NCBI RefSeq assembly: GCF_000016165.1
Contig: NC_009253.1
Span: 622,332 to 654,331, forward strand
DNA: 32,000 bases
Direction of reading: 5' to 3'
Source of the DNA: Desulforamulus reducens MI-1
GTDB lineage: Bacteria; Bacillota; Desulfotomaculia; Desulfotomaculales; Desulfotomaculaceae
The notes below the pieces were generated by a model, which saw only the letters and a program-made list of their open reading frames with translations, was not told where the DNA came from and ran no database searches. Made by a program: the position numbers and the translations under genes. Each line of letters starts with the position of its first letter. The first letter of the stretch is position 1. Positions 4,025 through 32,000 of this stretch are shown here, piece after piece.

Positions 4025-4171
4025 ATGAAACTTTTTGACATATACCCGGAGAATTTTTTCTCGGTGTTGACTTCTCCCAATAAAAAAATTTATATTGAGG
4101 CATTGTTTGTGATCAAACAGACTTACCAGCACTCCGCCATAATTCCTAAGGAGATTTGGTGGCTGGACTAA
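4025..4171 (+). pseudogene. jetA: jetA N-terminal segment (48 codons), separated from the rest of jetA by a 1-nt frameshift
   Basis: GGAG lies 6 nt upstream of ATG 4025. The segment reads MKLFDIYPENFFSVLTSPNKKIYIEALFVIKQTYQHSAIIPKE, which fits my recollection of Firmicute JetA N-termini. This frame stops at 4169-4171, and the body continues in the -1 frame from about 4150. Confidence 0.7.
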
Positions 4172-5430
4172 TAGCCAACCTGGAAAATCAAATGATGGAC
4201 CTGCAGGAAGAAGAGGGGGTACTGGCCTTTGAAGACAACCTTTCGGGCAGGGCCCATTTTTTGATTAGAAAGTTCCTGGAAACGGGTTGGCTGGAAAGGG
4301 AGCAGGACAGCCAAAGTTTTACCGAACAATTTGTGGTGCCTATGTACGCCAGTAAGCTTCTTAATCTTTTCTATGATTTGGTCAGCGGAAAAACCACGGA
4401 ATACAACGGTTTTGTTTATTCTACCTATTCTATCCTGAAGACAGCGGATGCAGAGCGGGATGATTATATGTTTGACGGACTGCGCCAGGCCCATCAGCTT
4501 ACGGAGAATCTGGACAATGCTTTGCGGGAGTTGTTGGCCAACTTAAGGTTTTACCATCAGAGGCTGCAGGAACAGGTAGAGGTAAAAGAAATTTTGGCGG
4601 AACACTTTGATGTTTTTCGGCAGAAAATCTCCGATAAAATTTATCATCCTCTGAAGACCTTCGACAGTGTGCCACGCTTTAAAAATCGGATTCTTAGAAT
4701 CCTTAAGAATTGGCTTACTGAGCCTGAGTTGATAGAAGATATGGCTGTTGTGGGTCATAAAAGGGGCTTTGGCCTGGACCCAGAGGCTTGCCGTCAAAGG
4801 GTAATCGTTATGATCGGGGAAATAATTGATACCTATGAGGGCATAGATCAGTTGTTAAAGTCCATAGATAAGAAAAACACGGCGTACACCAGGGCCTCTG
4901 TGGAGCGGATGCAGTACTACATAAACACGGAACGGGATATTAAAGGCAAACTGGTGGAGATTATGAAACGACTGCCTAAGATGAACGACAGAAAGAGAGA
5001 GGAAGAAATCGGACTTTTGAGTAGGGACTTGCCCCTTTTCCAGCAAGTTTATGTTGATGAAGAGTCGTTGTTCACTGAGCCCCGCAAGCGCAAGGAACAC
5101 TGCCCGCGAACCACCAATCTGGCCAGTTTAATTAACAAAGAAGAGCTAGATTCAGAAATGCAGGAATTTAAAAAGCGTCTGGAAAAGGTCTATTCCCATC
5201 ATAAGGTGCTGGAATATATCACGGAACAACTGGCCCGGCAGGGTGTCTTAAGGGCCAAAGATTTGCGGTTGGAGACCGATGATGACTTTATCAAACTGAT
5301 TCTGGCTTGTATTAAAAATGATGAAGCCGATATCCCCTTTACCATTGATTTTAAAGATGATTACCTCTTAGTAAACGGTTATCGGATACCGGAGCTGTTA
5401 ATTGCTAAGAAGAAGGAGAAGATATCCTGA
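4156..5430 (+). CDS. jetA: Wadjet JetA (MksF/kleisin-like subunit), main body; intact length would be about 468 aa from 4025
   Basis: First gene of a four-gene SMC-like operon. Its stop overlaps the jetB start (TGATG at 5428-5432). Size and position fit JetA. The frameshift site itself creates AAGGAG plus 5 nt plus GTG (4159), a possible restart. Confidence 0.8.
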   Translation: MVAGLIANLENQMMDLQEEEGVLAFEDNLSGRAHFLIRKFLETGWLEREQDSQSFTEQFVVPMYASKLLNLFYDLVSGKTTEYNGFVYSTYSILKTADAERDDYMFDGLRQAHQLTENLDNALRELLANLRFYHQRLQEQVEVKEILAEHFDVFRQKISDKIYHPLKTFDSVPRFKNRILRILKNWLTEPELIEDMAVVGHKRGFGLDPEACRQRVIVMIGEIIDTYEGIDQLLKSIDKKNTAYTRASVERMQYYINTERDIKGKLVEIMKRLPKMNDRKREEEIGLLSRDLPLFQQVYVDEESLFTEPRKRKEHCPRTTNLASLINKEELDSEMQEFKKRLEKVYSHHKVLEYITEQLARQGVLRAKDLRLETDDDFIKLILACIKNDEADIPFTIDFKDDYLLVNGYRIPELLIAKKKEKIS

Positions 5431-6062
5431 TGTGGGCAGAAGCATGGGAAAAGCTAACGGACAGGGATAAAGAGGAGTTTGTGCGGGTAATTAACCTTTT
5501 GTTAAGCAAGACCTTTATCCTGAGGGATGAGTATGAACCTAAGACAAAAAGCTTGGTCATCAACAAAGACTTTCGGTTTGTGGAGAGACACCATTCTCTA
5601 ATCCAAGAGTATTTAGGAATTGCCGGCTGGTATGTGCAAAATGATGCCTACAGGGGAGTTATTGCCGCTTATAACCGATTTGGCACCAATCGTTATCGTT
5701 TAGACAAGCCCAGTACTTATTTTTTATATACATTAAGGCTTATCTATGAAGAGAGTAGGGAAAAGATAGCCCTGGCCAAGCAATGCACGACCACTGTGGG
5801 GGAAATGGTGGAAAAAATGTTTTACTTGGGCCTGGTGGAAAAAAAGCCGCCGGACACTCATCTTAGGGAAGGTTTAAACACCCTAAAACGCTTTAACATT
5901 ATAGAAAAGGTGGAAGGTGATTGGGCCAAAGCCGATACTAGGATCGTAGTGTATCCCTCAATTGAGCTAATTGTTTCAAACGAAAAGATCAGCAACCTAT
6001 ATGACCAGTTGACGGAAGAGGGTGAAGATGATGAAACTACTGACCAGGATATTATTAATTAA
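5430..6062 (+). CDS. jetB: Wadjet JetB (MksE-like, DUF4194-type), 210 aa with an acidic C-terminal tail
   Basis: Translationally coupled to jetA. Its size and its position between the JetA-like and SMC-like genes fit JetB. The tail reads EEGEDDETTDQD. Confidence 0.8.
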   Translation: MWAEAWEKLTDRDKEEFVRVINLLLSKTFILRDEYEPKTKSLVINKDFRFVERHHSLIQEYLGIAGWYVQNDAYRGVIAAYNRFGTNRYRLDKPSTYFLYTLRLIYEESREKIALAKQCTTTVGEMVEKMFYLGLVEKKPPDTHLREGLNTLKRFNIIEKVEGDWAKADTRIVVYPSIELIVSNEKISNLYDQLTEEGEDDETTDQDIIN

Positions 6063-9000
6063 TTGGCACTATATAAAGTACCAGTGCATTGATTTTTCGG
6101 ATATTAACTTTTTAACTGGGAAGAACGGTTCAGGAAAGTCGACTATTATCGATGCCTTACAATTAGTGTTGCTGGGTGATACCAGTGGTTTTTACTTTAA
6201 CAAAGCGGCCAATGACAAGTCCCAGCGCTCGCTAAAGGGATATTTGCGGGGAGAAGTTGCCGAAGATGAAGAAACCAATACGGTTTATTTGAGAAATGAT
6301 GATTTTTCCAGCTACCTGGTCTTAGAGTTTCATGATAAAAAGAGTAACCAGTATTTTTGCCTGGGAGTTGTTTTTGATTGTTATGACGATGGCAGCCATG
6401 ACCACCAGTTCTTTTATTTGAATGATAAATTACCGGCTAATCACTTTATTGAGAAAGGCACAGAATTAAATCGAAAGGGGCTCAAAGCCTTCTTTTTCAA
6501 TAACTATTCTAGAGGCAAGTACCAATTTTTTGAAACCAATAGTAAGTATCAGGAAGTGGCCCTGGGGAAACTGGGCCAGATTAATAAAAAGTTTTTCCGC
6601 CTGTTAAAAAAAGCCGTACCTTTTTCGCCAATTATGGACATCAAAGGGTTTATCAGTGAGTTCGTTTGTGATGTGGAAAACAAAATCGACATAACAGACA
6701 TGCAGGAAAACATTCGCTATTATAAACAATTGGAACATGACCTGGAGATAGTCAAGCGGAAAATTGGCATTTTAAAGGAAATAGAAAGTCAACACAAATT
6801 CTATTGCGAAGAACTTCAGCGACTGGAAACCCAAAAATATTTAATTGACCGAGGAATACAGGAACAACTGCAAAACAGAGTTGCTAAAATTGCGCAAGAT
6901 ATTCATCGATTACGGGAAAAAATTGCTGCCAATGAAGGAAGCCTGCGGGAGAAAGAAGAGGAACTCACTTCCCTGCAGGAAGAGAGGGATCACCTTTTTG
7001 CGGAAAAAATTAATTCCGATGTGTACAGAAAAAGGGAAGAGTTGGGACGCCAAATTGAAGACCTGCAAAGGGAAAGCAAGGCTATTGAACATAGTAAAGG
7101 TATTTTGCTGGGGCTAATCAAAGGCGTCTTATATACCTGGCGGGAAGTTTATCAGTGGTGTCGGGAAAATTTAGCGGAGATGCCCCTGCTGGAAGAACCA
7201 CTGGACTATTTGGCCAATATCTCTGAGGGCAAGCTGGAATTAATAACCCGGGAAAAATTATGGTTTGTTAAACAAGCACTGCAGGAATATGTAAACAAAA
7301 TCAATGATGCCTATTCTACGCATAGGACCGAGTTAGATGGTTTAATGCAGTATTTAGGCAGGTTGGAAGAGGAAATCAAAAACCTTCGGCAGGGTATAAA
7401 GGCCTTTCCCCCGGCCATACTGGAACTGAAAAATTTGATTGCCGAAAAACTAAGTGCCAAGCACCAAAGAGACATTAAGCCACAGATTTTTGCCGATTTG
7501 CTGGAGATTAAAAGTGATCAATGGCGCAATGCCATTGAAGGGTATTTGAATACCCAGAAGTTTTATTTAATTGTTGAACCCAAGTATTTTATTGAAGCCT
7601 TAAAGATATATGATGAATTTAAATTTACTCACAAAATATATGATGTGGGTATTGTGGATATCGAGAAAATCATAGCCAGGCACCCCAGACCGCAGCCCAA
7701 CAGCCTTGCGGAAGAGGTTGAAAGCACAAACCCCTATGCCAGGTCTTACGCCGACTTCCTGCTGGGTCATGTTATAAAATGCGAAAAAGTGGAGCAACTG
7801 CGGGATTTCCGGACTTCCATTACCCCCAGTTGTATGCTTTATCACAATTATGTGGCGCGTCAAATTAACCCTCAAAGGTACGAAACCCCGTATATCGGGC
7901 AAAGGGCTGTTATCAATCAGCTTAGGCTTAAGGAAGCAAAATATACTGAAGTATCAGAGCAAAGGGATGCTTTGGGACCAAAGGTGGCTAAACTGGCCCA
8001 GCTTAGGAACAGCAGTGTTATTAATGATGAAAATATAAGTAGTATTTTGCAAAATAAACAAGCCGTGGACAGGCTGCCACAGGTCACCCATGCGTTAGAT
8101 AAGGCCACCCGGCAGTTGGCTGCCCTGGACTTGAGTTACCTGACCAGGGTAGAAAAATTATTAAAGGAAGCGGAGAACAATATTGGTGTCGTAAACAAAC
8201 AAATAAGGGAATTAGAAAAGTCCAAGGGTAAATATTACAGTGAAAGGGACGAAAAAGAAAAAGCCCTGCCTCTGCTGGAGAAGGACATAGCAGCACAAAA
8301 AGAGGATATCAAAAGCAGGTATGAGGCCCCCTGGGTGGAAGCAGTAGGGGAACCTAGGTTCCGGCAGGAACTGAGCCAGCGAAAGGACCCTGAGAACATT
8401 GTTAATACCTTTACTACAACTGTTAAAGGGACCCAAAGCCGCATAGAAAATAAATGGAAAGCTATGCTAGAGAGCAGGATTATTTACAACCGCGATTATA
8501 ACGGTGCCTTAGATGTAAATGCCCAGGGTAATGCTGCTTATGCCCAGGAATTGAGGGTCCTGGAAGATACCTCGCTGGTTCAGTATGAGGAAAAAATAAA
8601 GGATGCCCAGGAAAAAGCCCAGGAGCAGTTTAAGGAAGATTTCATCAGTAAACTGAAGAAAAACATTGAGGATGCACGGGAGCAAATTGATGATTTGAAT
8701 AAAGCCCTAAAAGATATACCCTTTGGTCGGGATAAGTACAGGTTCACTGTAACCCCTAACCCTCATTATAAAAAGTACTACGAAATGATTACCGATGATA
8801 TGTTGCTGGAAGGGTTGACCCTTTTTTCCGCATCTTTTCAGAGCAGATATCAGGATGTGGTGGAGGAGCTTTTCCGCCAGATTATTGATGTGGATGAAGG
8901 CCTGGTAAGCGCCGATCGGCGGGAAGAATTGAATAAGAACTTGGATAAGTTTACCGATTATCGGACTTACCTGGACTTTGATCTGGCAGTGACCGACGAC

Positions 9001-9360
9001 AGGGGGATGGAGTCAAGATTATCCAGGGTAATAGCCAAAAAATCAGGGGGAGAGACCCAGACCCCCTTCTATATTTCTGTATTGGCATCCTTTGTTCAGT
9101 TATACCGGATTAAAAGCAGGAACCAGGATAACACTGTGCGGATTTTGGTCTTTGACGAAGCCTATAGTAAGATGGACCATCAGCGGATTAAAGAAAGTAT
9201 TAACCTGATCCGGAAGCTAGGGCTGCAGGTTATTCTCTCTGCGCCCACAGAAAAAATCGGTGACATCGCCCCCTTAGTGGATAGGAACCTGTGTGTCACC
9301 AGGATAAAAAATGAGACAGTTATAAAATCCTTTGACCCCAGGGAAGTAGAGGGGGCTTAG
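6022..9360 (+). CDS. jetC: Wadjet JetC (MksB/SMC-like ABC ATPase with a long coiled coil), about 1110 aa
   Basis: Walker A GKNGSGKST (6118-6144), signature-like SGGE (9043-9054) and Walker B ILVFDEA (9142-9162), separated by about 950 aa of E/K/L/Q-rich heptad-like sequence. Possible starts are GTG 6022, ATG 6028 and ATG 6031 (GAGGG upstream), all inside the jetB 3' end. Confidence 0.92.
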   Translation: MKMMKLLTRILLINWHYIKYQCIDFSDINFLTGKNGSGKSTIIDALQLVLLGDTSGFYFNKAANDKSQRSLKGYLRGEVAEDEETNTVYLRNDDFSSYLVLEFHDKKSNQYFCLGVVFDCYDDGSHDHQFFYLNDKLPANHFIEKGTELNRKGLKAFFFNNYSRGKYQFFETNSKYQEVALGKLGQINKKFFRLLKKAVPFSPIMDIKGFISEFVCDVENKIDITDMQENIRYYKQLEHDLEIVKRKIGILKEIESQHKFYCEELQRLETQKYLIDRGIQEQLQNRVAKIAQDIHRLREKIAANEGSLREKEEELTSLQEERDHLFAEKINSDVYRKREELGRQIEDLQRESKAIEHSKGILLGLIKGVLYTWREVYQWCRENLAEMPLLEEPLDYLANISEGKLELITREKLWFVKQALQEYVNKINDAYSTHRTELDGLMQYLGRLEEEIKNLRQGIKAFPPAILELKNLIAEKLSAKHQRDIKPQIFADLLEIKSDQWRNAIEGYLNTQKFYLIVEPKYFIEALKIYDEFKFTHKIYDVGIVDIEKIIARHPRPQPNSLAEEVESTNPYARSYADFLLGHVIKCEKVEQLRDFRTSITPSCMLYHNYVARQINPQRYETPYIGQRAVINQLRLKEAKYTEVSEQRDALGPKVAKLAQLRNSSVINDENISSILQNKQAVDRLPQVTHALDKATRQLAALDLSYLTRVEKLLKEAENNIGVVNKQIRELEKSKGKYYSERDEKEKALPLLEKDIAAQKEDIKSRYEAPWVEAVGEPRFRQELSQRKDPENIVNTFTTTVKGTQSRIENKWKAMLESRIIYNRDYNGALDVNAQGNAAYAQELRVLEDTSLVQYEEKIKDAQEKAQEQFKEDFISKLKKNIEDAREQIDDLNKALKDIPFGRDKYRFTVTPNPHYKKYYEMITDDMLLEGLTLFSASFQSRYQDVVEELFRQIIDVDEGLVSADRREELNKNLDKFTDYRTYLDFDLAVTDDRGMESRLSRVIAKKSGGETQTPFYISVLASFVQLYRIKSRNQDNTVRILVFDEAYSKMDHQRIKESINLIRKLGLQVILSAPTEKIGDIAPLVDRNLCVTRIKNETVIKSFDPREVEGA

Positions 9361-9361
9361 C

Positions 9362-10600
9362 ATGGAATTTCGGGAACATATATTAAATACCTTACTGGAT
9401 AAATATGAAAAAAGCCTACATTATCAGGGCAAAGCTAAAGTTAACAGAAAGATAGCCTTATCCTTTAATGCCAAGAACTTCCCTTGGTACTGGAAAAGTG
9501 AGGCGCCCCACCTGAAGAAAGCAATTCACCAGGTTGTGGAGGATTTGGCCGGGCAAGGTATTGTAGCTTATAAATGGTTGCCCTTTGAAAAGGGAAATTT
9601 GCTAGATTCCGTCTGGCTTAACCTGGAGCAGGTCGATACAGCCTATCGTGTTATTGGACGGCAACCGAGAAAAGACAAAATAAAGGAAGTAGTTGGGGAA
9701 TTAGAAAACCTTTTGCCCCAAATTACTCAGGAGTGGGTAAAGAATTTCCTTATTGATTGCTTAAAAGAAATGCAGGATAAAAAAGACTTCCCGTTGCTCT
9801 TGCCGGCGGAAAAAGAAGAAAGGGAATTATTATTGAAAAGTTTCCTGGGGCTGGAAGATAAAAGGGATACCGTTCTTTTGGAGCGGGTTTTCAGTTTAAA
9901 ATACCTGGGACATAGTAAGGTTTTTCAAAGGAAAGTAAAAGGACGTTTAACACGCATTGCTGTTCAGTACCTGCTGAACAACTCAGAGCTGCTAGAGGAC
10001 GAGGTCATTCAGGAACTGGGCATCGAAAAAAACTCTGAGGAAGTATTGGTCTGCGGTGCAATAACTTTACTTTATAAAGATAAAAAAATAGATTATGCCA
10101 ATTCTCCCTTCGGTGGTGTAGTTGATACAAAATATTTTTCCAAAATGAAAATAGGCTCTGTGAAGGCTGCAAAGGTAATTACTATTGAAAACAAGGCCAA
10201 TTTCCACTACCTGGTAAACAATGGGATGGTTGATAGCACCCTTTTAATATACCTGGGGGGGTTTCCTGGTCCCCAAAAGAGAGATTTCTTGGTCAATCTT
10301 TACCAATTAAAGCCGAATGTTTCTTTTTATCATTGGGGCGATATTGACTTGGGCGGGTTTAGAATATTTGAGACCTTAAGAAAAGTAATTCCAACAATAA
10401 AGCCTCTTTTTATGGATGAGAGTACACTATTAAAGTATAAGGGTTACTGTGATGAGCTAGAAAATAACTATGCAAGGCAGTTGGAAAAGCTGTTGGATAA
10501 AGTGGAATATAAAACCTTTTGGCCCGTAATCAAAGTCATGTTAAAAGATAAAATTCGTTTGGAACAGGAAGCTCTTTTGGTATCGGAAGTTGATATGTAA
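9362..10600 (+). CDS. jetD: Wadjet JetD (MksG-like, Toprim/topoisomerase-VI-like nuclease subunit), 412 aa
   Basis: Starts 1 nt after the jetC stop. The C-terminal half carries Toprim-type residues: ITIENKAN (E at 10187-10189) and WGDIDLGG (DID at 10340-10348). Confidence 0.88.
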   Translation: MEFREHILNTLLDKYEKSLHYQGKAKVNRKIALSFNAKNFPWYWKSEAPHLKKAIHQVVEDLAGQGIVAYKWLPFEKGNLLDSVWLNLEQVDTAYRVIGRQPRKDKIKEVVGELENLLPQITQEWVKNFLIDCLKEMQDKKDFPLLLPAEKEERELLLKSFLGLEDKRDTVLLERVFSLKYLGHSKVFQRKVKGRLTRIAVQYLLNNSELLEDEVIQELGIEKNSEEVLVCGAITLLYKDKKIDYANSPFGGVVDTKYFSKMKIGSVKAAKVITIENKANFHYLVNNGMVDSTLLIYLGGFPGPQKRDFLVNLYQLKPNVSFYHWGDIDLGGFRIFETLRKVIPTIKPLFMDESTLLKYKGYCDELENNYARQLEKLLDKVEYKTFWPVIKVMLKDKIRLEQEALLVSEVDM

Positions 10601-10823
10601 AGTAAAAAGGGGCAAAAATCCCACTAGGATTAACTGTTTTTCCGTCAGGGGCGGTAAATACCAAAACAGTCCTTTTGGGGTTGGGTGTGCTTACGTCACA
10701 AACAATATTAATTAATGGAGACGGTTTATAAACATGGTAATGGCTATGTTCGTATGTTGTTTGGCCGATTATTTGATGATAGTGGCCTCCTTCGGAATTA
10801 TTTAAATATATTACGCAAACCAA
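10536..10823 (-). pseudogene. YmaF-like HxH-repeat remnant, convergent with jetD and overlapping its last 65 nt
   Basis: Reads EGGHYHQIIGQTTYEHSHYHVY, close to the terminal GGHYH..G.TT...H.H.Y repeat of Bacillus YmaF as I recall it. There is no SD and only a TTG start. The frame stays open upstream to about 10990, where a degenerate NGHTDISLTE repeat appears. Confidence 0.35.
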
Positions 10824-10971
10824 TGAAGTAAAGTACCAATAGCCTAGAAAATATTTAGACTCGGTTAAGCTGATGTCGGTATGGCCGTTGGCACCTGGTT
10901 CGGCATAGAGGCTGATACGGATTCTGTGGAGGAAGAGTTTATCGAGGTAGGAACGGCAGAGATTATCGATA

Positions 10972-17215: not shown

Positions 17216-17361
17216 CAACCATACTTGTGCGTAACATTTTTTGTTTTTGTAACCAAACTATTTTAACAAAGAAGGATATAAAAGACGGGTAGAGAACATT
17301 ACAAATGATATATACACAGAAGATAGGAATTGTGTTGTCTTTCCAAAACTAAAAAGTTATA

Positions 17362-17460
17362 AAACCTCAGGGGTGCCGGATGAGTCTGGCTGAGATTTCC
17401 TCACGTTGAAGAGGAGGACCCTTGAACCTGATCTGGGTTAAGCCAGCGGAGGGAGAGGTG
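17362..17460 (+). promoter_or_regulatory. TPP (THI-box) riboswitch aptamer
   Basis: Contains GGGGTGC...CTGAGA...ACCCTTGAACCTGATCTGGGTTAAGCCAGCGGAGGGA, matching the conserved THI-box cores. Lies directly upstream of thiE-thiM. Confidence 0.9.
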
Positions 17461-17478
17461 CAGCAATCGTTTTTATTT

Positions 17479-17515
17479 AACCTCTTCCCTCATGGCGGGA
17501 GAGGTTTTTATTGTT
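17479..17515 (+). terminator. Riboswitch expression-platform terminator
   Basis: AACCTCTTCCC ... GGGAGAGGTT followed by TTTTATTGTTTTT. The aptamer 3' strand GGGAGAGG (about 17450-17457) can pair alternatively with CCTCTTCCC as an antiterminator. Confidence 0.8.
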
Positions 17516-17545
17516 TTTAATTTACTATGATTAAGGGGGAGTCTA

Positions 17546-18166
17546 ATGAAGGATATTGACTATGGTCTATATTTGATAACCGATGATTTTTATTTAAATC
17601 AAAGAGGTATATTGGCTGTTATTGAGGAGTGCCTTAAAGCAGGGGTAACAATGCTGCAGTACCGAGCTAAGGAAAAGTCCTCCAGGGAAATGCTAAAAGA
17701 AGCAGAGAAACTAAAAGAACTGGCTCTTAAATATCAGGTACCATTCATTATTAATGATCGTCTGGATATTGCTCTGGCTGTGCAGGCTGACGGTGTACAT
17801 CTCGGTCAGAGTGATCTGCCTTTTACGGTGGCTAAAGGGTTGATGGCTGATAGAATTATCGGAGTATCTGCAACTTCTTATGAGGAAGGTAGAGAAGCTA
17901 TTCAACAGGGAGCAGATTATGTGGGTGTGGGTCCGGTGTTTCCCACTGCCACCAAGAAAGATGCAAAGCCACCCTTAGGCATAGAGGTTATTCGGCAGTT
18001 AAAAGGCGATTTTCCAAAGGCAAAGCTGGTTGCCATTGGGGGAATAAGTCTTGATAATGCGTCCGAAGTGGTAAATTCTGGCGCTGATGGGTTGGCCATT
18101 ATTTCTGCAATTCTTGGGGCCAGTGAGCCCGGGGAAAGGGTTAAGCAGTTTTTAAAGATGAATTAA
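17546..18166 (+). CDS. thiE: Thiamine-phosphate synthase
   Basis: 206 aa. Reads YLITD...LQYRAKE...[24 protein letters not shown]...IGVS...[10 protein letters not shown]...IGGI. GGGGGAG RBS. Under TPP riboswitch control. Confidence 0.92.
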
Positions 18167-18183
18167 TTTATGAGGTGATATGG

Positions 18184-18984
18184 ATGCAAGAGGTTCAAAG
18201 GTTATGGGATATTCGGCAAGAGGTTAGGATCAAAAAACCCCTGGTATGTAACATAACAAATACAGTGGTAACCAATTTTACGGCCAATGTACTTTTAGCC
18301 GTGGGAGCATCGCCGCTGATGTCCGAAGGGTGGCAAGAAGCGGATGACTTAGCCAAAATTGTTGATGTCTTAGTTCTGAATATGGGGACATTACACCCCA
18401 GACAGGTTGAATACTTTATAAAAGCAGGTAAAAGTGCTAACCAGGAACAAAAACCAGTGGTCTTTGATCCGGTGGGCATTGGGGCCACATCCTACCGAAA
18501 TGCTGTGGCTGCTGAGATCTTAGATAAAATTAAGTTAGATCTTATCAGAGGGAATCATGGGGAGATTAACTTTTTGGCGGGTATTACTGGCCAAACCAAG
18601 GGGGTTGACAGTTTAAGTAATCAAATAAGTGTTAAGCATCTCGCGGAGTTCGCAAATACAACCCGCACCTTAGTAGTGTCTACGGGTGAGGTGGACTACC
18701 TGTCTGACGGTGCCAAAACCTTTACAAATAAAACAGGTCATGCCTATTTACAGTTAGTTACTGGAACGGGTTGTGCTCTATCTTCTTTAGCGGGTGCATT
18801 TATGTCTGTGACAGAGGATAAATGTCTTGGTGTTTTGTCAGCTTTAGCCTTTTATGGGGCTGCGGCTCAAAAGGCTGCTCTCATTAGCCAGGGACCTGGC
18901 ACCTTTGCAGGGAATTTCCTAGATGCCTTATATGGTTTGGAGTTTGATGAATTTAAGAAAATATTAGAAGCCCCAAAGATATAG
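18184..18984 (+). CDS. thiM: Hydroxyethylthiazole kinase
   Basis: Reads [29 protein letters not shown]...VLNMGTL...FDPVG...IRGN..E, with the ThiM catalytic-region TGTGC. GAGGTGA RBS before ATG 18184; the track start GTG 18175 is less likely. Confidence 0.9.
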
Positions 18985-25204: not shown

Positions 25205-26683
25205 GATTCTTTAATACAGAAAGTAGGGATATTTTACTGATAGTAGGAAAACACGGAAACATTATGGAGCCAATTATGCTGCTGTGAAAGCCTATGGATA
25301 CAGCCTGAAAGAACTACTTACTCTTAGTATTTATGATCTGCGGGAACCAGGAACCATTGGGCAAGTTGCCATCCAAATGAGACAGGCCCTTGAAAAAGGT
25401 ACGCTATTTGATACAATCCACAGGCGCAAGGACCGCAGTGTATTTCCGGTGGAGGTAAGTGCCAAAAGAATTTTGCACGATGGAAATATTTTAATCCTCA
25501 GCTCTATCCGGGACATTAGTCATCGTCGAAAAACAGAACTGGCCCTTCGACAATCCAATGAAGAGTTAACCGCTGCCAATGAGGAATTAATTGCCTCAAA
25601 CGAGCAGATACTGGCCACCGAAGAAGAATTGCGGCAGCAGTTTATTGAGTTGCAAAAAAGCAAGGACCAACTGGCTACGGCTAACCGTCAGTTGGCAGAG
25701 ATTATAGAATTTTTGCCAGATGCTACTTTTATCGTAAACCAAGAAAAAAAGTAATTGCTTGGAATCAAGCCATTCAGGAAATGACCGGCGTTAATAAGGA
25801 GAAAATCCTTTGGCCATAACTATAATTTGGCAAGAATTGGCGGCGATGAGTTTGCGGTATTGATAACCCAATGTTCAAGGGATGTTCTGGTCAAATATTG
25901 CCAGGATATCAAGAAGAATATAAAGGACTTTAATCAGCAAAACCAGGATTTACCGCCTTTAAGCCTCTCGATAGGCTATGCTATACGGGAGAATAGACAT
26001 AAAACCATGAGTCAACTTTTTACAGAGGCAGATAACAATATGTACCGGGAAAAACTGCATAGGAATTTAAGTTCCCGGAGCTCTATTGTTAGCGCACTAA
26101 TGAAAGCCCTGGAGGCACGAGACTTTATTACCGAGGGACACGGCGAGAGGATAGAAGTACTTATCAAAAAAGTAGGAAAGAAAATGGGTCTAACCCCAAG
26201 TAACATTTATGGCCTTCGATTACTGCACAATTTCATGATATAGGAAAGGTAGGTATACCGGATCGCATTCTTTTTAAACCCGGGCCCCTGACAAAGGATG
26301 AGCAAAAGGAAATGGAGAGGCACAGTGAAATCGGCTATCGAATAGCCCAATCTGCCTCGGAATTGATGCCCATTGCAGATTGGATTTTGAAGCATCATGA
26401 ATGGTGGAATGGGAAGGGCTATCCGCTGGGATTAAAGGGGGAGGAGATTCCCCTGGAATGCCGTATTCTTGCCATTGCCGATGCTTATGATGCCATGAGT
26501 AATGATCGTCCCTATAGGCGAGCTTTAGAAAAATCCATTATTCTAGAAGAACTCAAGAGATGTGCTGGTATTCAGTTCGACCCCCAACTGGTTGATGTTG
26601 TACTAAGGATCATTGAAAAAGAATTTAATGGACTAAGACATATTTCACTGTTCAACAAGTTGCTATATCGGCAGAAGAGTTAG
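25205..26683 (+). pseudogene. Decayed PAS-PAS-GGDEF-HD-GYP signalling gene (at least 3 frameshifts plus an internal deletion)
   Basis: Frame breaks lie at about 25267-25271, at 25744-25750 (A7 run) and at about 26224-26226. PAS2 stops after about 20 aa (VIAWNQAIQEMTGVNKEKILWP*) and the text jumps to ..GHNYNLARIGGDEFAVLI, so the N-terminal half of GGDEF is missing. The HD-GYP part (HDIGKVGIP...HHEWWNGKGYP) is otherwise well preserved. Confidence 0.8.
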
Positions 26684-27058: not shown

Positions 27059-27379
27059 ATGAAAAAAAGAAACCAGCACAGGCAAGCTTTACTAAGGCTT
27101 TTGGAAACGGAATTGATCATGTACCCTGAATTAAAAAAGAAGGCTTTAAAGTATCCCAGCTTTGAGCGTATTGCCCATATTCAAGCCATCGAAACAGCCC
27201 TTGAGGTATTTTGTACCAATGAGGTAAAGAGAGAGTTTGTTAAGTTGAAGTTTTGGGGAAGGCGAATGAAAAATCATGAAATTGCTACTCAATTAGAGAT
27301 TCCTAAAGAAGCTTTACCCCGTTGGCGCAAAACATTATTAACCATCCTGGCAGAGAAGCTTAATATGGATGATCTATAA
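27059..27379 (+). CDS. RinA/ArpU-like phage-type transcriptional activator (sigma-70 region-4-like HTH), 106 aa, orphan
   Basis: LETELIMYPELKKK matches the RinA-family E.EL..Y motif. ...IETALEVF...LKFWGRRMKNHEIATQLEIPKEALPRWRKTLLTILAEKL supplies the C-terminal HTH. No other phage genes are in the window. Confidence 0.6.
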   Translation: MKKRNQHRQALLRLLETELIMYPELKKKALKYPSFERIAHIQAIETALEVFCTNEVKREFVKLKFWGRRMKNHEIATQLEIPKEALPRWRKTLLTILAEKLNMDDL

Positions 27380-27405
27380 GATAAGCAATTTATATTTGTA
27401 TCATT

Positions 27406-27431
27406 ACCCGGTGAAAAACCCGGGTTTTTTT
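27406..27431 (+). terminator. Intrinsic terminator after the RinA-like gene
   Basis: ACCCGG tgaaaaac CCGGGT followed by T7. Confidence 0.7.
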
Positions 27432-27771: not shown

Positions 27772-27787
27772 AGTAGTGCGCACTACT
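27772..27787. promoter_or_regulatory. Perfect 16-bp palindrome AGTAGTGCGCACTACT, a candidate operator 100 bp upstream of the gcvH-like gene
   Basis: Exact self-complementarity read directly from the sequence. It is the only such element in this intergenic region. Confidence 0.4.
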
Positions 27788-27886: not shown

Positions 27887-28285
27887 ATGACAAAACCCAT
27901 TACTGAATTAACTTTCCTCAACGGTATTCACTATTTCCATGAGCACACCTGGGCCAAAGTTGAAGGTGATCTAGTAAAGGTAGGTATAACCGACTTCGCT
28001 CAGGATAGCCTGGGTAACATTATCTTCGTAGAACTGCCCAATGAAGGTGAGACTTTTAGCAAAGGTGACGAATTCGGTCAGGCTGAATCCGCTAAAACCG
28101 TTTCTGCTCTCTACATGCCAGTGAGCGGTGAAATTGTAGAAGTGAACAGTGAATTAGAAGAAGCACCCCAAAATGTCAATGAAGACCCCTATGGTTCTGG
28201 CTGGATGATTATAGTTAAGCCCAGCAATCTTGATGAAGTTAAAGAACTGTTGTCTAAGGAAGAATACCTGAATCAAATCAAGTAG
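27887..28285 (+). CDS. gcvH: Glycine-cleavage H-protein-like lipoyl carrier protein
   Basis: HEHTWAKVEGDLVKVGITDFAQDSLGNIIFVELP...GQAESAKTVSALYMPVSGEIVEVN...DPYGSGW has the putative lipoyl-Lys at 28094-28096 (ESAK). No gcvT or gcvP lies nearby. The start is ATG 27887; the track's 27878 is too close to the SD. Confidence 0.88.
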   Translation: MTKPITELTFLNGIHYFHEHTWAKVEGDLVKVGITDFAQDSLGNIIFVELPNEGETFSKGDEFGQAESAKTVSALYMPVSGEIVEVNSELEEAPQNVNEDPYGSGWMIIVKPSNLDEVKELLSKEEYLNQIK

Positions 28286-28348
28286 AGGGGGGTCAGACCC
28301 CTGAAATATTTGTCGAATAATCTTATTAGAATGGAAGGAGATGGCATT

Positions 28349-29191
28349 ATGAGTTACACCATCTACTCAGCCACTGGCTGCACCCGTTGCAAAATCGTTA
28401 AACAAGTTATGAAGGAACGTGGCATTGACTTTATAGAACAGGACATGAAAGCAGAAGGTAAGGAAGCCTTTCAAAAATTTTATGCCGCCAACCGGAAAGC
28501 TATTTTTCGTGGCCCGGACGGTGTTGAATTCCCTCTATTACATGATGGTGAGGTGATTCGCCAAGGTATTGGTGCCTCAGTGGCCTACATCTATTCTGGT
28601 ATGAAGCTGGATGGTTTCTTTAGTGTAGGGACCCTGCACAAAGAATGGGTAGACGGCATCCATGTTTCCGGTGGTAACCCCGCATATGCTGCAGAATTTA
28701 TTGAGGTTTTACGTTACATTAAAAATACCAATAATATGAAATTGCAGCTGGATACCAACGGTTTAAACAGTGCTATTCTGGAGCAAATCCTGACTGAAAA
28801 TCTGGCGGATGTAGTGATCATGAATGTCCTAGGGCCCAAAGAATTGTACGGCCAGCTTGTGGGCAAGGATGTAGACCTAGCTGAGATTGAAAAATCCATC
28901 GCTTTGGTAACTAAATTTCCAGAGTACAAATTCCAGACCACCGTTGCCCCCGTGGTTCGCCAAGATGGAGATATTAGCTACCTAACCACTAAGGAAATAG
29001 GGGCCACAGCAAAATTAATTGCTGAAGCCACAGGAAGCATGAAAAACCCTTACCTAGTTAAATTATTTAAGCCTAAAGAGTGCAAGGACGAGCGTTTTAA
29101 AGGCGTCGAGTCCATGGCTACGGAAGCACTGTTACCTTATCGCACAGCAGCCAGAAGCCATCAAGTCTTTGTGGAAATTGAAAAGGCATAA
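28349..29191 (+). CDS. Fusion protein: glutaredoxin-like CxxC domain plus a radical-SAM-activase-like (NrdG/PflA-type) barrel lacking the CX3CX2C motif
   Basis: AAGGAG lies 9 nt before ATG 28349. The N-terminus YSATGCTRCKIVKQVMKERGIDFIEQDM is Grx/NrdH-like, with CxxC at 28379-28390. The remainder (VDGIHVSGGNP...FIEVLRYIK..NMKLQLDTNGLN...ADVVIMNVLGPKELY...YKFQTTVAPVV) matches the class-III RNR-activase-like family after the cluster loop. The whole protein has only 3 Cys. Confidence 0.7.
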   Translation: MSYTIYSATGCTRCKIVKQVMKERGIDFIEQDMKAEGKEAFQKFYAANRKAIFRGPDGVEFPLLHDGEVIRQGIGASVAYIYSGMKLDGFFSVGTLHKEWVDGIHVSGGNPAYAAEFIEVLRYIKNTNNMKLQLDTNGLNSAILEQILTENLADVVIMNVLGPKELYGQLVGKDVDLAEIEKSIALVTKFPEYKFQTTVAPVVRQDGDISYLTTKEIGATAKLIAEATGSMKNPYLVKLFKPKECKDERFKGVESMATEALLPYRTAARSHQVFVEIEKA

Positions 29192-29232
29192 CAAGCATTT
29201 AAATAGAGAAAATAGCGAATAGAGGCAATAAC

Positions 29233-30678
29233 ATGAGTTATCCAACGGTATACCCAACTGGAGTTACCATTTACAATCCCAAGAAAGCCTGGAGTGGTTA
29301 TACTATCTTCCAAGCCAGAGAAGTAGGTGCTTTGCTGATTGATATGAATGGCAGCGAAGTAAACCTGTGGGAGGGACTGCACGGCTTTCCTAACAAAATC
29401 CTGCCCGGTGGCTATGTAATGGGTCACCTTGGGGATAGAAACAACAACTTCGGTATGCAGGACCAGACTGACTTAGTACAGGTTGATTGGGAAGGCAACA
29501 TTGCCTGGAAATTTAACCAGTACGAATTTATCGAAGATCCCGGTGAAGAACCCCAGTGGATGGCTAGACAACACCACGATTACCAGCGTGAAGGTAACCC
29601 TGTAGGTTACTATGTTCCTGGTATGGAACCCCAAACCGATAAGGGCAACACACTGATACTTGTCCATAAAAATGTTAAAAACCCTAAGATTTCTGATAAA
29701 TTACTGCTGGATGATGTTATTATTGAAGTAGATTGGGAAGGTAACATTGTTTGGGAATGGGCTTGCAATGAGCACTTTGACGAGTTTGGCTTTGACGAAG
29801 CCGCTAAAAACATCTTATCCCGTGACCCCAATATGAGAACTTCCGGTGGTGGTATGGGTGACTGGATGCACGTAAACTCCATGTCCGTCCTGGGTCCCAA
29901 CAAGTTTTATGATGCAGGTGATGAGCGCTTTCATCCTGACAACATTATTATTGATGGTCGGGAAACCAACATTATTTGTATTATTGACAAGAAAACCGGC
30001 AAAATTGTTTGGAAATTAGGTCCAAACTATGATACCAGTGAAGAACTTAAGAAAATTGGCTGGATCATTGGTCAACACCATGCCCACATGATTCCCAAAG
30101 GTCTGCCTGGTGAAGGAAACATTTTAATCTTTGACAATGGTGGCTGGGCTGGTTATGGTGTGCCTAACCCTGCTTCCCCTACTGGAGCAAAGAATGCCCG
30201 TCGGGACTACTCTCGGGTACTGGAAATTGACCCCACTACCCTGAAGATTGTATGGCAGTATACCCCTGCTGAAGCTGGTTTCGTTATGCCAACTGACTCT
30301 GAACGTTTCTACAGCCCTTATATCAGCAGTGCCCAGCGTTTGCCTAACGGTAACACCCTAATTACCGAAGGCTCTGACGGTCGTATCTTTGAAGTAACCC
30401 CAGACTATGAAGTTGTTTGGGAATACATCAGTCCCTATAAAGGTGTACACTTACCCACTAACATGGTATATCGTGCTTACCGTGTACCCTACGAGTGGGT
30501 ACCCCAAGTAGAACGTCCGGTGGAAACTGCCATTGAGCCTGTGGATTTAACAACCTTTCGGATGCCCGGTGCAGCACCTATGGGTGCTAAGAAAACTACT
30601 GTTATTGAAGGCACACGTCCTTACCAAGGCGACAAGGCTCTGTGCGTCGCGGCAGGTGATGAAGTAGAAGAAAAGTAA
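29233..30678 (+). CDS. Aryl-sulfate sulfotransferase (ASST)-like beta-propeller protein, no signal peptide, 481 aa
   Basis: Repeated ..DW.GNI.W.. and ..TGKIVWKLGP.. blades, plus MGDWMHVNSMSVL and IGQHHAHMIP..GNILIFDNG, resemble ASST-family motifs (DW.H.NS; qHda..l..GnillFDN). The N-terminus MSYPTVYPTG has no leader. Confidence 0.7.
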   Translation: MSYPTVYPTGVTIYNPKKAWSGYTIFQAREVGALLIDMNGSEVNLWEGLHGFPNKILPGGYVMGHLGDRNNNFGMQDQTDLVQVDWEGNIAWKFNQYEFIEDPGEEPQWMARQHHDYQREGNPVGYYVPGMEPQTDKGNTLILVHKNVKNPKISDKLLLDDVIIEVDWEGNIVWEWACNEHFDEFGFDEAAKNILSRDPNMRTSGGGMGDWMHVNSMSVLGPNKFYDAGDERFHPDNIIIDGRETNIICIIDKKTGKIVWKLGPNYDTSEELKKIGWIIGQHHAHMIPKGLPGEGNILIFDNGGWAGYGVPNPASPTGAKNARRDYSRVLEIDPTTLKIVWQYTPAEAGFVMPTDSERFYSPYISSAQRLPNGNTLITEGSDGRIFEVTPDYEVVWEYISPYKGVHLPTNMVYRAYRVPYEWVPQVERPVETAIEPVDLTTFRMPGAAPMGAKKTTVIEGTRPYQGDKALCVAAGDEVEEK

Positions 30679-30772
30679 CTAATAAATGGGGGGCTACCAG
30701 CCCCCCATTAATTTAATCTAGATTTTTAATAAAATTAGCTAAGACAATCCAATTTTAAGGGAGGTTATAAAC

Positions 30773-32000
30773 ATGACTTATAAAGCTGTGGTTATCGGCG
30801 GTGGTCCTGGTGGTTATGTAGCTGCCATTAGAATAGCCCAACTGGGCGGCAAGGTTGCGGTAGTGGAAAAGGATAGGCTGGGGGGGACCTGTTTAAATAG
30901 AGGCTGCATTCCTACCAAATCACTGATTGCTGCGGTTGATAAATTGAAAGCGGTGGAAGAAGCCGCTGCCTTTGGTATTGAAGTTGGCCAGCCGATGATT
31001 AATTTTAGCAAGGTCCAGGCCAGAAAGTCTGAAGTGGTTGAGAAGCTAGTGGGCGGTATTAATTTCCTATTTAATAAGAACAAAGTAGAATTATTTAACG
31101 GAACCGCTAAAATAAAAGCGCCGGGTGTGGTGGAAGTTGAGAATAATGGTGAAACCCAGAAATTGCAGTGTGAAAATATTGTCATTGCCACTGGCTCCAG
31201 CCCTGCCCTTATTAAAGCACTGGGGTACAACGGAAACACCATTATTACCAGTGAAGAGGCCTTGCAATTGACGGAAATTCCTAGAAGTCTGCTGATTATT
31301 GGTGCTGGTGTAATTGGTTGTGAATTTGCCCATATTTATGGTAGTATGGGGACAGAGATTACCATGGTAGAAGCAGCACCCAGCATTTTATCCCTGCAAG
31401 ATAAAGATATTTCACGCCGGATGCAGACTATCTTCAAGAAGAAAAAGTTTAATATAAAAACCAATGTCACCATTAAGAAAATTGAAGAGGTAGACAATGG
31501 TATTCAAGCTGAGTTAGAAAACGGCGACATCATCAAAGCTGAAAAAGCACTGATCTCCATTGGTCGTATCCTTAATACCAAAAATCTAGGCTTAGCAGAG
31601 GCTGGTATTGAGTGCGGCGAAAGAGGTCAGATTTTAGTTAATGACCAAATGCAAACCAACATCAAGGGCTTCTATGCCATTGGTGATGTAATTAGTAAGT
31701 ATCAGTTGGCCCATGTAGCTTCCGCCCAGGGTATTGTGGCAGCGGAGAACATTATGGGTATTGAATCCACCATGAATTATAGTGCCGTTCCCAGCTGTAT
31801 TTTTACCAGCCCTGAAATAGGTTCCGTAGGTATGACTGAGCAGCAGGCAAAGGATCAAGAAATACCTGTAAAAACCGGCAAATTTAATTTCATGGCTAAT
31901 GGTAAAGCCCTTAGTATAGGGGAAGGCGAAGGTTTTGTTAAGATTGTTACCCATAAAGAAACCGATGTGATTTTGGGTGTTCATATCATAGGGCCCCATG
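30773..32000 (+). CDS. lpdA: Dihydrolipoyl dehydrogenase (E3/L-protein type flavoprotein disulfide reductase), 3'-truncated by the window end
   Basis: Not in the ORF track because no stop falls within the window. Reads MTYKAVVIGGGPGGYVAAIRIAQLGGKVAVVEK (FAD GxGxxG), the redox disulfide GGTCLNRGCIPTK, and NAD-binding IIGAGVIGCEFA. GGGAGG RBS. Confidence 0.9.
   Translation, partial: MTYKAVVIGGGPGGYVAAIRIAQLGGKVAVVEKDRLGGTCLNRGCIPTKSLIAAVDKLKAVEEAAAFGIEVGQPMINFSKVQARKSEVVEKLVGGINFLFNKNKVELFNGTAKIKAPGVVEVENNGETQKLQCENIVIATGSSPALIKALGYNGNTIITSEEALQLTEIPRSLLIIGAGVIGCEFAHIYGSMGTEITMVEAAPSILSLQDKDISRRMQTIFKKKKFNIKTNVTIKKIEEVDNGIQAELENGDIIKAEKALISIGRILNTKNLGLAEAGIECGERGQILVNDQMQTNIKGFYAIGDVISKYQLAHVASAQGIVAAENIMGIESTMNYSAVPSCIFTSPEIGSVGMTEQQAKDQEIPVKTGKFNFMANGKALSIGEGEGFVKIVTHKETDVILGVHIIGPH

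Follow-up and report, generated by a model that had tools for sequence, protein, structure and literature searches.

A conserved gene set linking a predicted cytoplasmic aryl-sulfotransferase-like enzyme to a putative NADH-driven thiol relay

Why would a lone glycine-cleavage H-protein gene (gcvH) and a dihydrolipoyl dehydrogenase gene (lpd) enclose an arylsulfate sulfotransferase (ASST)-like gene in the genome of Desulforamulus reducens MI-1? We addressed this question in a window of 32,000 nucleotides (the whole stretch of DNA analysed, NC_009253.1, positions 622,332 to 654,331; Dred_0606 region). An earlier note, made from the sequence alone, had read these genes as a candidate lipoyl-dependent thiol-redox (or sulfur-relay) module. 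We first confirmed that four co-directional genes are present, separated by gaps of 63, 41 and 94 nt. The features of the locus are as follows.

27772..27787, no strand assigned: 16-bp palindrome AGTAGTGCGCACTACT (layout GTAGT-N4-ACTAC), about 100 nt upstream of gcvH, a candidate operator of the cluster promoter.
27887..28285, + strand: gcvH, the lipoyl carrier protein, with the lipoyl-lysine K70 (codon 28094-28096) in the motif ESAK.
28349..29191, + strand: the fusion gene (FUS), an NrdH/glutaredoxin-like domain (about residues 1-94; C11-x-R-C14 motif encoded at 28379-28390) fused to a cluster-less radical-SAM-type partial barrel (about residues 95-280).
29233..30678, + strand: leaderless ASST-like beta-propeller, with conserved residues H213 (29869-29871), N215 (29875-29877), R243 (29959-29961), H282 (30076-30078; the sulfo-histidine equivalent) and C471 (30643-30645; on the flexible tail).
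30685..30709, + strand: G+C-rich hairpin between the ASST-like gene and lpd, which looks like a terminator or attenuator.
30773..32000, + strand: lpd, dihydrolipoyl dehydrogenase, cut off by the window end after 409 codons, with redox cysteines C40 and C45 (30890-30907).

We next assigned each protein by profile searches. The H-protein matched Pfam GCV_H (E 1.8e-42) and NCBIfam GcvH (158 bits against a cutoff of 117). Its start at 27887 was preferred over 27878 because of the spacing from the AGGA ribosome-binding site. Lpd matched TIGR01350 with 504 bits against a cutoff of 409. The ASST-like protein matched PF05935 (E 2.5e-30) and PF14269 (E 3.8e-20). It has no hydrophobic leader, and the N-terminal residues M1, Y3 and P4 are invariant in the family. 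In FUS, the N-terminal part is glutaredoxin/NrdH-like with the motif C11-T-R-C14, while the C-terminal radical-SAM-like part scored only 23.1 bits in Pfam, below the cutoff of 29.5. Its best NCBIfam match was NrdG2 (TIGR02495, E 4e-19), far below the cutoff of that family.

The hairpin is slightly longer than the earlier note had described, with 11 pairs, 7 of them G-C, followed by AATTTAATCT. It is conserved in three close relatives (loci L003, L004 and L082). Boxes nearly identical to the palindrome occupy the same position in L003 and L082, and a more diverged copy is visible upstream of gcvH in L004. That this palindrome functions as an operator is an inference.

To determine whether the arrangement is conserved, we examined gene neighbourhoods in genomes and metagenomes. 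FUS lies within 10 kb of the ASST-like gene in 68 of 80 FUS-anchored genome loci across several phyla, and within 3 kb in 20 of 32 well-flanked ASST-anchored metagenome loci. GcvH was present in 33 of the 80 genome loci and Lpd in 27, and all four genes occurred together in 18 genome loci and 10 metagenome loci. As GcvH and Lpd are one- or two-copy genes, this association is far beyond chance; we estimate chance co-location at roughly 1% or less. The two middle genes are syntenic with each other in most loci, and with gcvH and lpd in a large minority, across Bacillota, Desulfobacterota, SAR324 and Bilophila. Gene order differs between lineages, and Bilophila wadsworthia carries all four genes in the order GcvH< Lpd< FUS< Crp< ASST>. 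Importantly, no gcvT, gcvP, E1 or E2 gene lies anywhere in the window, and in the closest relatives, at 82-91% identity, lpd is followed by lipB and lipA.

Interestingly, in three loci a thioredoxin and a thioredoxin reductase (TIGR01292, 345 bits) occupy the place of GcvH and Lpd, giving the order Crp, leaderless ASST, thioredoxin, thioredoxin reductase, FUS. This supports a chain from NAD(P)H to a disulfide reductase, a dithiol carrier and then FUS, and lends independent support to the electron chain from NADH through Lpd and lipoyl-GcvH to the CxxC domain that the earlier note had proposed, although electron flow itself remains inferred. The neighbourhood data support that interpretation with two refinements. 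First, the conserved core is the ASST-like gene plus FUS plus an organic-anion transporter, whereas GcvH, Lpd and LipBA form a frequent but exchangeable donor module; GcvH and Lpd are absent from the neighbourhood in more than half of the loci. A transporter gene lies within 2.5 kb of 41 of 53 and 23 of 35 ASST-like genes, and catabolic-type regulators are also nearby, but the cluster in this window has no adjacent transporter or regulator. Second, conserved residues of the ASST-like protein allow a more specific mechanism than serving the ASST-like enzyme, as the note had put it.

We then compared the ASST-like family with E. coli ASST. An hhalign comparison (probability 90.6%) and an independent MAFFT alignment agreed on four equivalences, namely His356 to H213, Asn358 to N215, Arg374 to R243 and His436, the sulfo-histidine, to H282 (residue roles from PMC13426309). 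All four are invariant in the family. The equivalents of E. coli ASST His252 and Thr501 could not be placed. The top fold matches were the Cpz4 sulfotransferase (E 6e-15) and E. coli ASST (E 1e-10), although the structural model has only moderate confidence (pLDDT 75.5). The family also carries a cysteine, Cys471, in the motif A-L-C-V about 10 residues before an acidic C-terminus. This cysteine is present in 154 of 155 genes, the one exception being truncated, and the tail that bears it has pLDDT below 50.

The AlphaFold model of FUS has pLDDT 94, and CxRC is present in 120 of 120 homologues. The N-terminal domain superposes on NrdH (PDB 1h75). The barrel is most similar to NrdG2-like activases, which are the nearest cluster-bearing relatives, and shares the motifs KLDTNG and FP(D/E)Y(E/K)F(R/Q)TT with roughly 250-aa relatives that carry CNFxCPxC. 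In FUS, however, the Fe-S segment is replaced by the redoxin domain, there is no CxxxCxxC motif, no cluster cysteines remain and the GGE SAM-binding motif is degenerate. No nrdD or other glycyl-radical enzyme gene was found nearby. FUS therefore cannot be a radical-SAM enzyme.

Taken together, these observations suggest that the four genes may form the redox and catalytic core of a cytoplasmic pathway for an imported organic sulfate ester, most probably an aryl sulfate that carries an anionic group. We give this reading a probability of about 0.4; every step is inferred. The substrate would be imported by a neighbouring transporter, which in other genomes is a TTT, TRAP, DASS or MFS transporter. 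The ASST-like enzyme would take the sulfuryl group onto His282, as classical ASST does on His436. Instead of being passed to a phenol, the group would move to the thiolate of Cys471 on the enzyme's own flexible, acidic tail, giving an S-sulfocysteine (a thiosulfonate). Cys11 of FUS would attack that cysteine and release sulfite, and Cys14 would resolve the mixed disulfide. The barrel of FUS probably docks the tail peptide or the lipoyl arm, but this role is a guess. Oxidised FUS would be re-reduced by dihydrolipoyl-GcvH, and Lpd would re-reduce lipoyl-GcvH with NADH. The net reaction would be R-O-SO3- + NADH + H+ -> R-OH + HSO3- + NAD+.

This proposed logic has a precedent in sulfonucleotide (PAPS/APS) reductases, and in plant APR with its fused Grx-type domain. 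A cysteine on a flexible C-terminal tail forms a thiosulfonate there, which thioredoxin or glutaredoxin resolves to sulfite (PMC1175818, bioRxiv 10.64898/2026.09.04.749436, PMC6827007). The fold is unrelated, however, as no PAPS-reductase domain hit was obtained; the sulfuryl donor would be an ester rather than a nucleotide, a histidine intermediate would be interposed, the reductant would be lipoyl-GcvH and Lpd, and no ATP would be used. The module may therefore work like that system but is not a member of the family. The mycobacterial Lpd/DlaT/AhpD/AhpC relay offers a parallel for the electron chain, probably passing from NADH through Lpd and a protein-bound lipoamide to a CxxC adaptor and a thiol-dependent client. 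Here the lipoyl carrier is a GcvH rather than an E2, the adaptor is the NrdH-like/radical-SAM-like fusion rather than AhpD, and the client is an ASST-like enzyme rather than a peroxiredoxin; no AhpC or AhpD homologues are in the neighbourhoods.

Several results weigh against this reading. No biochemical, genetic or expression evidence exists for any member, and no thiol acceptor has ever been reported for an ASST (PMC13426309). No sulfite-handling gene (dsr, asr or a sulfite exporter) is consistently adjacent. By record name, most hosts are sulfate or sulfite reducers, but some are not known sulfite respirers, including Neomoorella glycerini, Dehalobacterium, and MAGs from Hyphomicrobiales, Woeseiaceae and Chloroflexota.

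One alternative, which we consider less likely, is redox maintenance. In this case, the ASST-like enzyme would carry out ordinary, redox-neutral sulfuryl transfer between phenolic compounds in the cytoplasm, and FUS with GcvH/Lpd, or with Trx/TrxR, would keep an essential cysteine such as Cys471 reduced or switch the enzyme on and off. ASST genes are known to come with dedicated thiol:disulfide oxidoreductases, as in astA-dsbA and assT-dsbL-dsbI (PMC13426309), and the catalytic residues for transfer are conserved. About 40% of well-flanked ASST-like genes have no FUS beside them, as expected if FUS is a helper. The module would then be the cytoplasmic mirror of the DsbL/DsbI pair of E. coli CFT073, in which an ASST-fold propeller is likewise encoded next to dedicated thiol-redox proteins. 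Compared with that periplasmic enzyme, the present protein is leaderless and cytoplasmic, lacks the N-terminal Ig-like domain and the Cys418-Cys424 loop region, has the extra tail cysteine, is flanked by importers in other genomes, and has reductive rather than oxidative partners. However, a complete NADH-linked relay with its own lipoylation genes (lipB, lipA) is heavy equipment for housekeeping in the already reducing cytoplasm of strict anaerobes. Moreover, the cysteine sits on a disordered tail rather than in a structural position, and no second, acceptor-related gene is conserved.

A different chemistry on the same scaffold is similarly doubtful. The propeller might use its histidine-rich centre and the tail cysteine for a dithiol-dependent reaction that does not involve a sulfate ester, such as reduction of a sulfoxide, a disulfide or thiosulfonate, or an arsenical, or reductive cleavage of a sulfonate, with the ASST-like residues binding a different anion. 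The family is only distantly related to characterised ASSTs (about 15-19% identity), E. coli ASST is not found by sequence search, and two of the six E. coli ASST active-site residues are not placed. TTT, TRAP, DASS and MFS transporters may also carry sulfonates and plain carboxylates. However, the nucleophilic histidine and three sulfuryl-binding residues are invariant at 72-91% family identity. In addition, leaderless ASSTs of classical architecture (PF17425 + PF05935, E 3e-104) are linked to the same FUS protein, which ties FUS to ASST chemistry in general.

A reverse or relay direction appears improbable. The module might consume sulfite, passing from sulfite plus a protein disulfide to a thiosulfonate, a sulfuryl-histidine and a sulfated phenol, so that NAD+-linked sulfation detoxifies sulfite or phenols. 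Alternatively, S-sulfo-lipoyl-GcvH might be a carrier feeding another pathway, in analogy to LbpA. GcvH-like LbpA proteins act in sHdr sulfur oxidation, with dedicated lipoylation genes nearby (PMC6067878), some hosts (SAR324, Woeseiaceae) probably belong to groups with sulfur-oxidising members, and the sulfur relay that the earlier note offered as an alternative is not excluded by any test made here. On textbook redox values, however, with the APS/sulfite couple (about -60 mV) as a proxy for an activated sulfate ester against -320 mV for NAD+/NADH, making such an ester from sulfite with NAD+ as acceptor is strongly uphill. The GcvH here scores as a true GcvH and far below the cutoffs of the two GcvH-like/GcvH-related families in NCBIfam. 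No hdr, dsrE or tusA genes are in the neighbourhoods, and the lipoylation genes are lipB and lipA rather than the specific LplA-type ligases.

Finally, an ordinary interrupted glycine-cleavage or 2-oxoacid dehydrogenase locus with two passenger genes is contradicted by the synteny data, even though GcvH and Lpd are bona fide family members by HMM score, as the supposed passengers are the conserved core and recur with GcvH and Lpd in other phyla in other orders.

The hosts of this conserved gene set, on which we found no literature, include the gut pathobiont Bilophila, a sulfite reducer that lives on organosulfur-derived sulfite. In such anaerobic sulfur bacteria, the module may turn organic sulfate esters directly into sulfite without spending ATP, and this sulfite could then be respired through Dsr or assimilated.

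The four co-directional genes were found as described in the earlier note. The features of the locus and of the rest of the window were as follows.

27887-28285, gcvH, encoding the lipoyl carrier protein
28349-29191, the gene for a 280-aa fusion protein (FUS), 100% identical to Dred_0606 of Desulforamulus (Desulfotomaculum) reducens MI-1
29233-30678, the gene for a 481-aa leaderless ASST-like protein
30685-30709, a hairpin of 11 pairs, 7 of them G-C, with a T-rich tail
30773 to the window end, lpd, with the C-terminal roughly 50 residues lying outside the window
27772-27787, a perfect 16-bp palindrome, AGTAGTGCGCACTACT, about 100 nt upstream of gcvH
27059-27425, a 106-aa ORF with no Pfam match, followed by a clean terminator-like hairpin (27406-27425, then a run of seven T)
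25284-26683, PAS, GGDEF and HD-GYP domains in three consecutive short ORFs
17359-18984, a TPP riboswitch (17359-17471) ahead of a thiE-like gene (17546-18166) and thiM (18175-18984)
4156-10600, a complete Wadjet anti-plasmid operon (JetA, JetB/DUF4194, JetC/SbcC-like of 1112 aa, JetD)

The gaps between the four genes are 63, 41 and 94 nt. The hairpin at 30685-30709 is conserved in three close relatives (loci L003, L004 and L082), while the terminator-like hairpin at 27406-27425 marks the upstream boundary of the cluster's transcription unit. The palindrome is conserved in position in close relatives (L003 at 9429, L082 at 1909, and upstream of gcvH in L004). Its 5-N4-5 layout resembles Crp/Fnr-family boxes, and Crp-family regulators are encoded in 22 of 80 FUS loci. 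An Rfam scan found no riboswitch or other RNA family near the cluster, the only hit being the TPP riboswitch (68 bits against a gathering score of 54). Elsewhere in the window, JetA scored E 2e-118, and the PAS, GGDEF and HD-GYP ORFs each matched only part of the respective domain profile, probably reflecting a decayed c-di-GMP signalling gene. The other genes in the window are unrelated.

The gcvH product matched GCV_H at E 1.8e-42 and NCBIfam GcvH at 158 bits (cutoff 117), with the lipoyl-lysine at K70 in the motif ESAK. Lpd scored 504 bits against TIGR01350 (cutoff 409), and its redox cysteines are C40 and C45. However, no gcvT, gcvP, E1 or E2 gene was found in the window, and neither gcvT nor gcvP was found in 80 related loci. 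In the closest relatives, lpd is instead followed by lipB (LplA-B_cat, E 1.6e-52) and lipA, which answers the concern raised in the earlier note that gcvT and gcvP might lie just beyond the window edge.

To test whether the cluster is a real unit, we anchored a scan of 185,579 species genomes on FUS. This returned 80 loci from Bacillota, Desulfobacterota, SAR324, Chloroflexota, Acidobacteriota and Proteobacteria. Within 10 kb of FUS, the ASST-like gene was present in 68 of the 80 loci, GcvH in 33, Lpd in 27, and all four genes together in 18. In the reverse test, anchored on the ASST-like protein in metagenome contigs, FUS was present in 34 of 80 loci, and in 20 of the 32 loci with at least 3 kb of flank on both sides; all four genes were together in 10 loci. 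The ASST-like protein remains 64-91% identical where FUS drops to 34-50%, so this is not one recently transferred cassette.

Gene order is not fixed. Peptococcaceae typically have LysR< (ASST, DASS) GcvH FUS (ASST) Lpd LipB LipA, whereas Desulfobacterota typically have GntR TctC TctB TctA ASST FUS. A high-GC human-gut organism, identified by exact-sequence look-up as Bilophila wadsworthia, carries GcvH< Lpd< FUS< Crp< ASST>, followed by a 539-aa secreted protein with no Pfam match, possibly an outer-membrane channel. Other gut contigs carry MFS> ASST> without FUS (human-gut metagenome loci for both, L140-L142, L146 and L148). Interestingly, D. reducens has a second, paralogous cluster around Dred_0364 (contigs L001/L002), reading LysR< ASST-like, DASS transporter, GcvH, FUS, with 71-76% identity to the window genes. 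In its D. aeronauticus counterpart (L006) no lpd follows FUS, while the D. reducens contigs end in an uncharacterised ORF just after FUS.

We next examined three loci (L011 at 6343-10831, L015 and L026) in which different genes lie immediately upstream of FUS. These encode a leaderless ASST of classical architecture (630 aa; PF17425 + PF05935, E 3e-104), a thioredoxin (motif CHVC), and a thioredoxin reductase (TIGR01292, 345 bits) with a fused thioredoxin domain. A pair made of a flavoprotein disulfide reductase and a dithiol carrier therefore replaces Lpd and GcvH, which is the pattern expected if both pairs feed electrons from NAD(P)H to the CxRC motif of FUS. We regard this as the strongest support for the chain proposed in the earlier note, from NADH through Lpd and lipoyl-GcvH to the CxxC domain. 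It also shows that FUS is tied to ASST-type enzymes in general. The ASST of these loci has an extra C-terminal domain of about 130 aa containing ITAACVSFEEQ, which a global hhalign placed on the ALCVAAGDE tail of the window family, although this evidence is weak.

The ASST-like protein scored above the curated thresholds of PF05935 (E 2.5e-30; 106 bits against a cutoff of 24.2) and PF14269 (E 3.8e-20; 72.9 bits against 27). Neither a single-sequence nor a profile search of PDB sequences found E. coli ASST. In contrast, the top Foldseek PDB hits of the predicted six-bladed beta-propeller were the Cpz4 sulfotransferase (9kf4/9kf6, E 6e-15) and then E. coli ASST (3ets/4p05, E about 1e-10). The model pLDDT is 75.5, so TM-scores are only about 0.45-0.54. 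We retrieved E. coli CFT073 assT, which sits next to dsbL and dsbI, and aligned it by hhalign (probability 90.6%) and independently by MAFFT. In mature numbering (precursor minus 27), which matched the literature residues where precursor numbering did not, both alignments agreed that His356 corresponds to H213, Asn358 to N215, Arg374 to R243, and the sulfo-histidine His436 to H282. All four residues are invariant in the family (H282 in 20 diverse members), and their roles have been reviewed (PMC13426309). Thr501 aligned by hhalign to I364, next to the invariant S365, whereas placements of His252 conflicted.

The family lacks a signal peptide, the N-terminal Ig-like domain (no PF17425 hit) and the Cys418-Cys424 loop region, and its N-terminus is conserved from M1. 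Its partners are cytoplasmic reductive proteins. Instead, it has a feature absent from E. coli ASST: a cysteine (C471 in the window protein) in the motif A-L-C-V, about 10 residues before an acidic C-terminus. This cysteine was present in 154 of 155 genes, the one exception being cut by a contig end, and it is never replaced by selenocysteine, with no in-frame TGA found at this position. It lies in a stretch with pLDDT below 50. The family is unusually conserved (72-91% identity between phyla) and very abundant, with more than 7,500 clusters at 90% identity.

FUS was modelled confidently (pLDDT 94) as an NrdH-like redoxin domain joined to a radical-SAM-type partial (beta/alpha)6 barrel. The redoxin domain matched NrdH (1h75) with TM 0.71 on the target, although Pfam Glutaredoxin scored 20.9 bits, just under the cutoff of 22.9. 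Foldseek hits of the barrel included BioB, LIAS/LipA, PflA and viperin (E 1e-4 to 1e-3), but the Pfam radical-SAM score (PF04055) was 23.1 bits, below the cutoff of 29.5. Only two cysteines, C11 and C14, are conserved, and CxRC was present in 120 of 120 copies, with cysteine at both positions in every one. There is no CxxxCxxC motif, and the relic of the GGE SAM-binding motif is degenerate (GGNP, GGDP, QCPA, ARPM). In an exhaustive profile search, the nearest relatives with a cluster were a separate group of roughly 250-aa NrdG2-like activases carrying CNFxCPxC, which share motifs such as KLDTNG and FPDYEFRTT with FUS. FUS is therefore an activase whose Fe-S segment was replaced by a redoxin domain, and it cannot perform radical chemistry. 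A role as an active glycyl-radical activase was rejected because FUS has no cluster and no glycyl-radical enzyme gene is nearby. As activases of this type bind a peptide loop of their protein substrate, we infer that the barrel might dock the ASST tail or the lipoyl arm.

A transporter gene lies within 2.5 kb of 41 of 53 and 23 of 35 ASST-like genes. The types are TctABC, DctP/DctQM, DASS and MFS, all verified by Pfam, and GntR-, Crp-, LysR- and IclR-type regulators are also nearby. Extra ASST-like paralogues sit beside their own transporter without a FUS gene, which suggests several substrates sharing one redox module. No other catabolic enzyme is consistently linked. XDH-family trios next to some ASST-FUS pairs, and a cytoplasmic molybdopterin oxidoreductase with a 4Fe-4S subunit next to others, occur in only 5-7 loci, and none reached an equivalog cutoff. 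The large subunits of the trios scored about equally for xanthine dehydrogenase and 4-hydroxybenzoyl-CoA reductase, so the hint at an aromatic substrate is weak.

The retained sulfuryl-transfer residues, the obligatory tail cysteine, the obligatory dithiol partner, the NAD(P)H-linked donor modules and the import of an organic anion together fit a reductive version of ASST chemistry. In this hypothesis, aryl sulfate would sulfurylate His282, and the sulfuryl group would pass to Cys471 as a thiosulfonate. FUS would then release sulfite and become oxidised, and would be re-reduced by dihydrolipoyl-GcvH, Lpd and NADH. This is the logic of PAPS/APS reductase, whose catalytic cysteine also sits on a flexible C-terminal tail and whose thiosulfonate is resolved by thioredoxin or a Grx-type domain (PMC1175818, PMC6827007, bioRxiv 10.64898/2026.09.04.749436). 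However, the fold here is unrelated, no ATP is used, and no PAPS-reductase domain was found by Pfam or NCBIfam on any of the four proteins, so the resemblance is only one of working mode. Dihydrolipoamide can probably reduce glutaredoxins, and the potential of an activated sulfate ester relative to sulfite (about -60 mV for the APS/sulfite couple) would be expected to make reduction by NADH favourable. By record name, most hosts are sulfate or sulfite reducers, including Bilophila, which respires sulfite derived from organosulfur compounds. Every step after gene linkage and residue conservation is inferred, and we assign this chemistry a probability of 0.4. The more general statement, that NAD(P)H-derived electrons reach the ASST-like enzyme through FUS, is likely.

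Among the alternatives, two are about equally placed and both rather unlikely: a dedicated reductive maintenance or switch system for an ordinary transferase, mirroring DsbL/DsbI, and a different dithiol-dependent chemistry on the same scaffold. A reverse direction or a sulfur relay is less likely still. As to sHdr-LbpA sulfur oxidation, no hdr family is among the enriched neighbours, and the carrier scored far below the cutoffs of the two GcvH-like/GcvH-related families in NCBIfam. An ordinary gcv or 2-oxoacid dehydrogenase locus is contradicted by the synteny.

Every part belongs to a known family, and the relay resembles known systems of Lpd, a lipoyl protein and a CxxC adaptor; the predicted reaction would be new if confirmed. 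Literature searches by locus tag, family names and Bilophila found no description of this module, and a 2026 review of ASSTs mentions no cytoplasmic, thiol-coupled members. NCBIfam has no model for FUS or for the ASST-like subfamily, and older database records even label the latter 'thioredoxin'. Even if the chemistry differs, the module is abundant, strongly conserved and unannotated.

Ester sulfates make up a large share of organic sulfur in soils and sediments and are major host-conjugation products in the gut. The only recognised microbial entry routes are hydrolytic sulfatases, which yield sulfate, and redox-neutral ASST transfer. Tentatively, the module would represent a previously unrecognised branch of the sulfur cycle, namely the ATP-independent reduction of organic sulfate esters to sulfite. 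Sulfate and sulfite reducers in sediments, aquifers and peat could then respire ester sulfate without the two-ATP cost of sulfate activation. In the human gut, Bilophila wadsworthia, which cannot use sulfate, could make H2S from host and dietary aryl sulfates such as p-cresyl, phenyl or polyphenol sulfates. A cytoplasmic route yielding sulfite directly would add an unrecognised source of H2S in Bilophila-associated disease. It would also give GcvH and lipoate a third role outside glycine cleavage, and would give the first function for a radical-SAM barrel that has lost its cluster and gained a redoxin domain.
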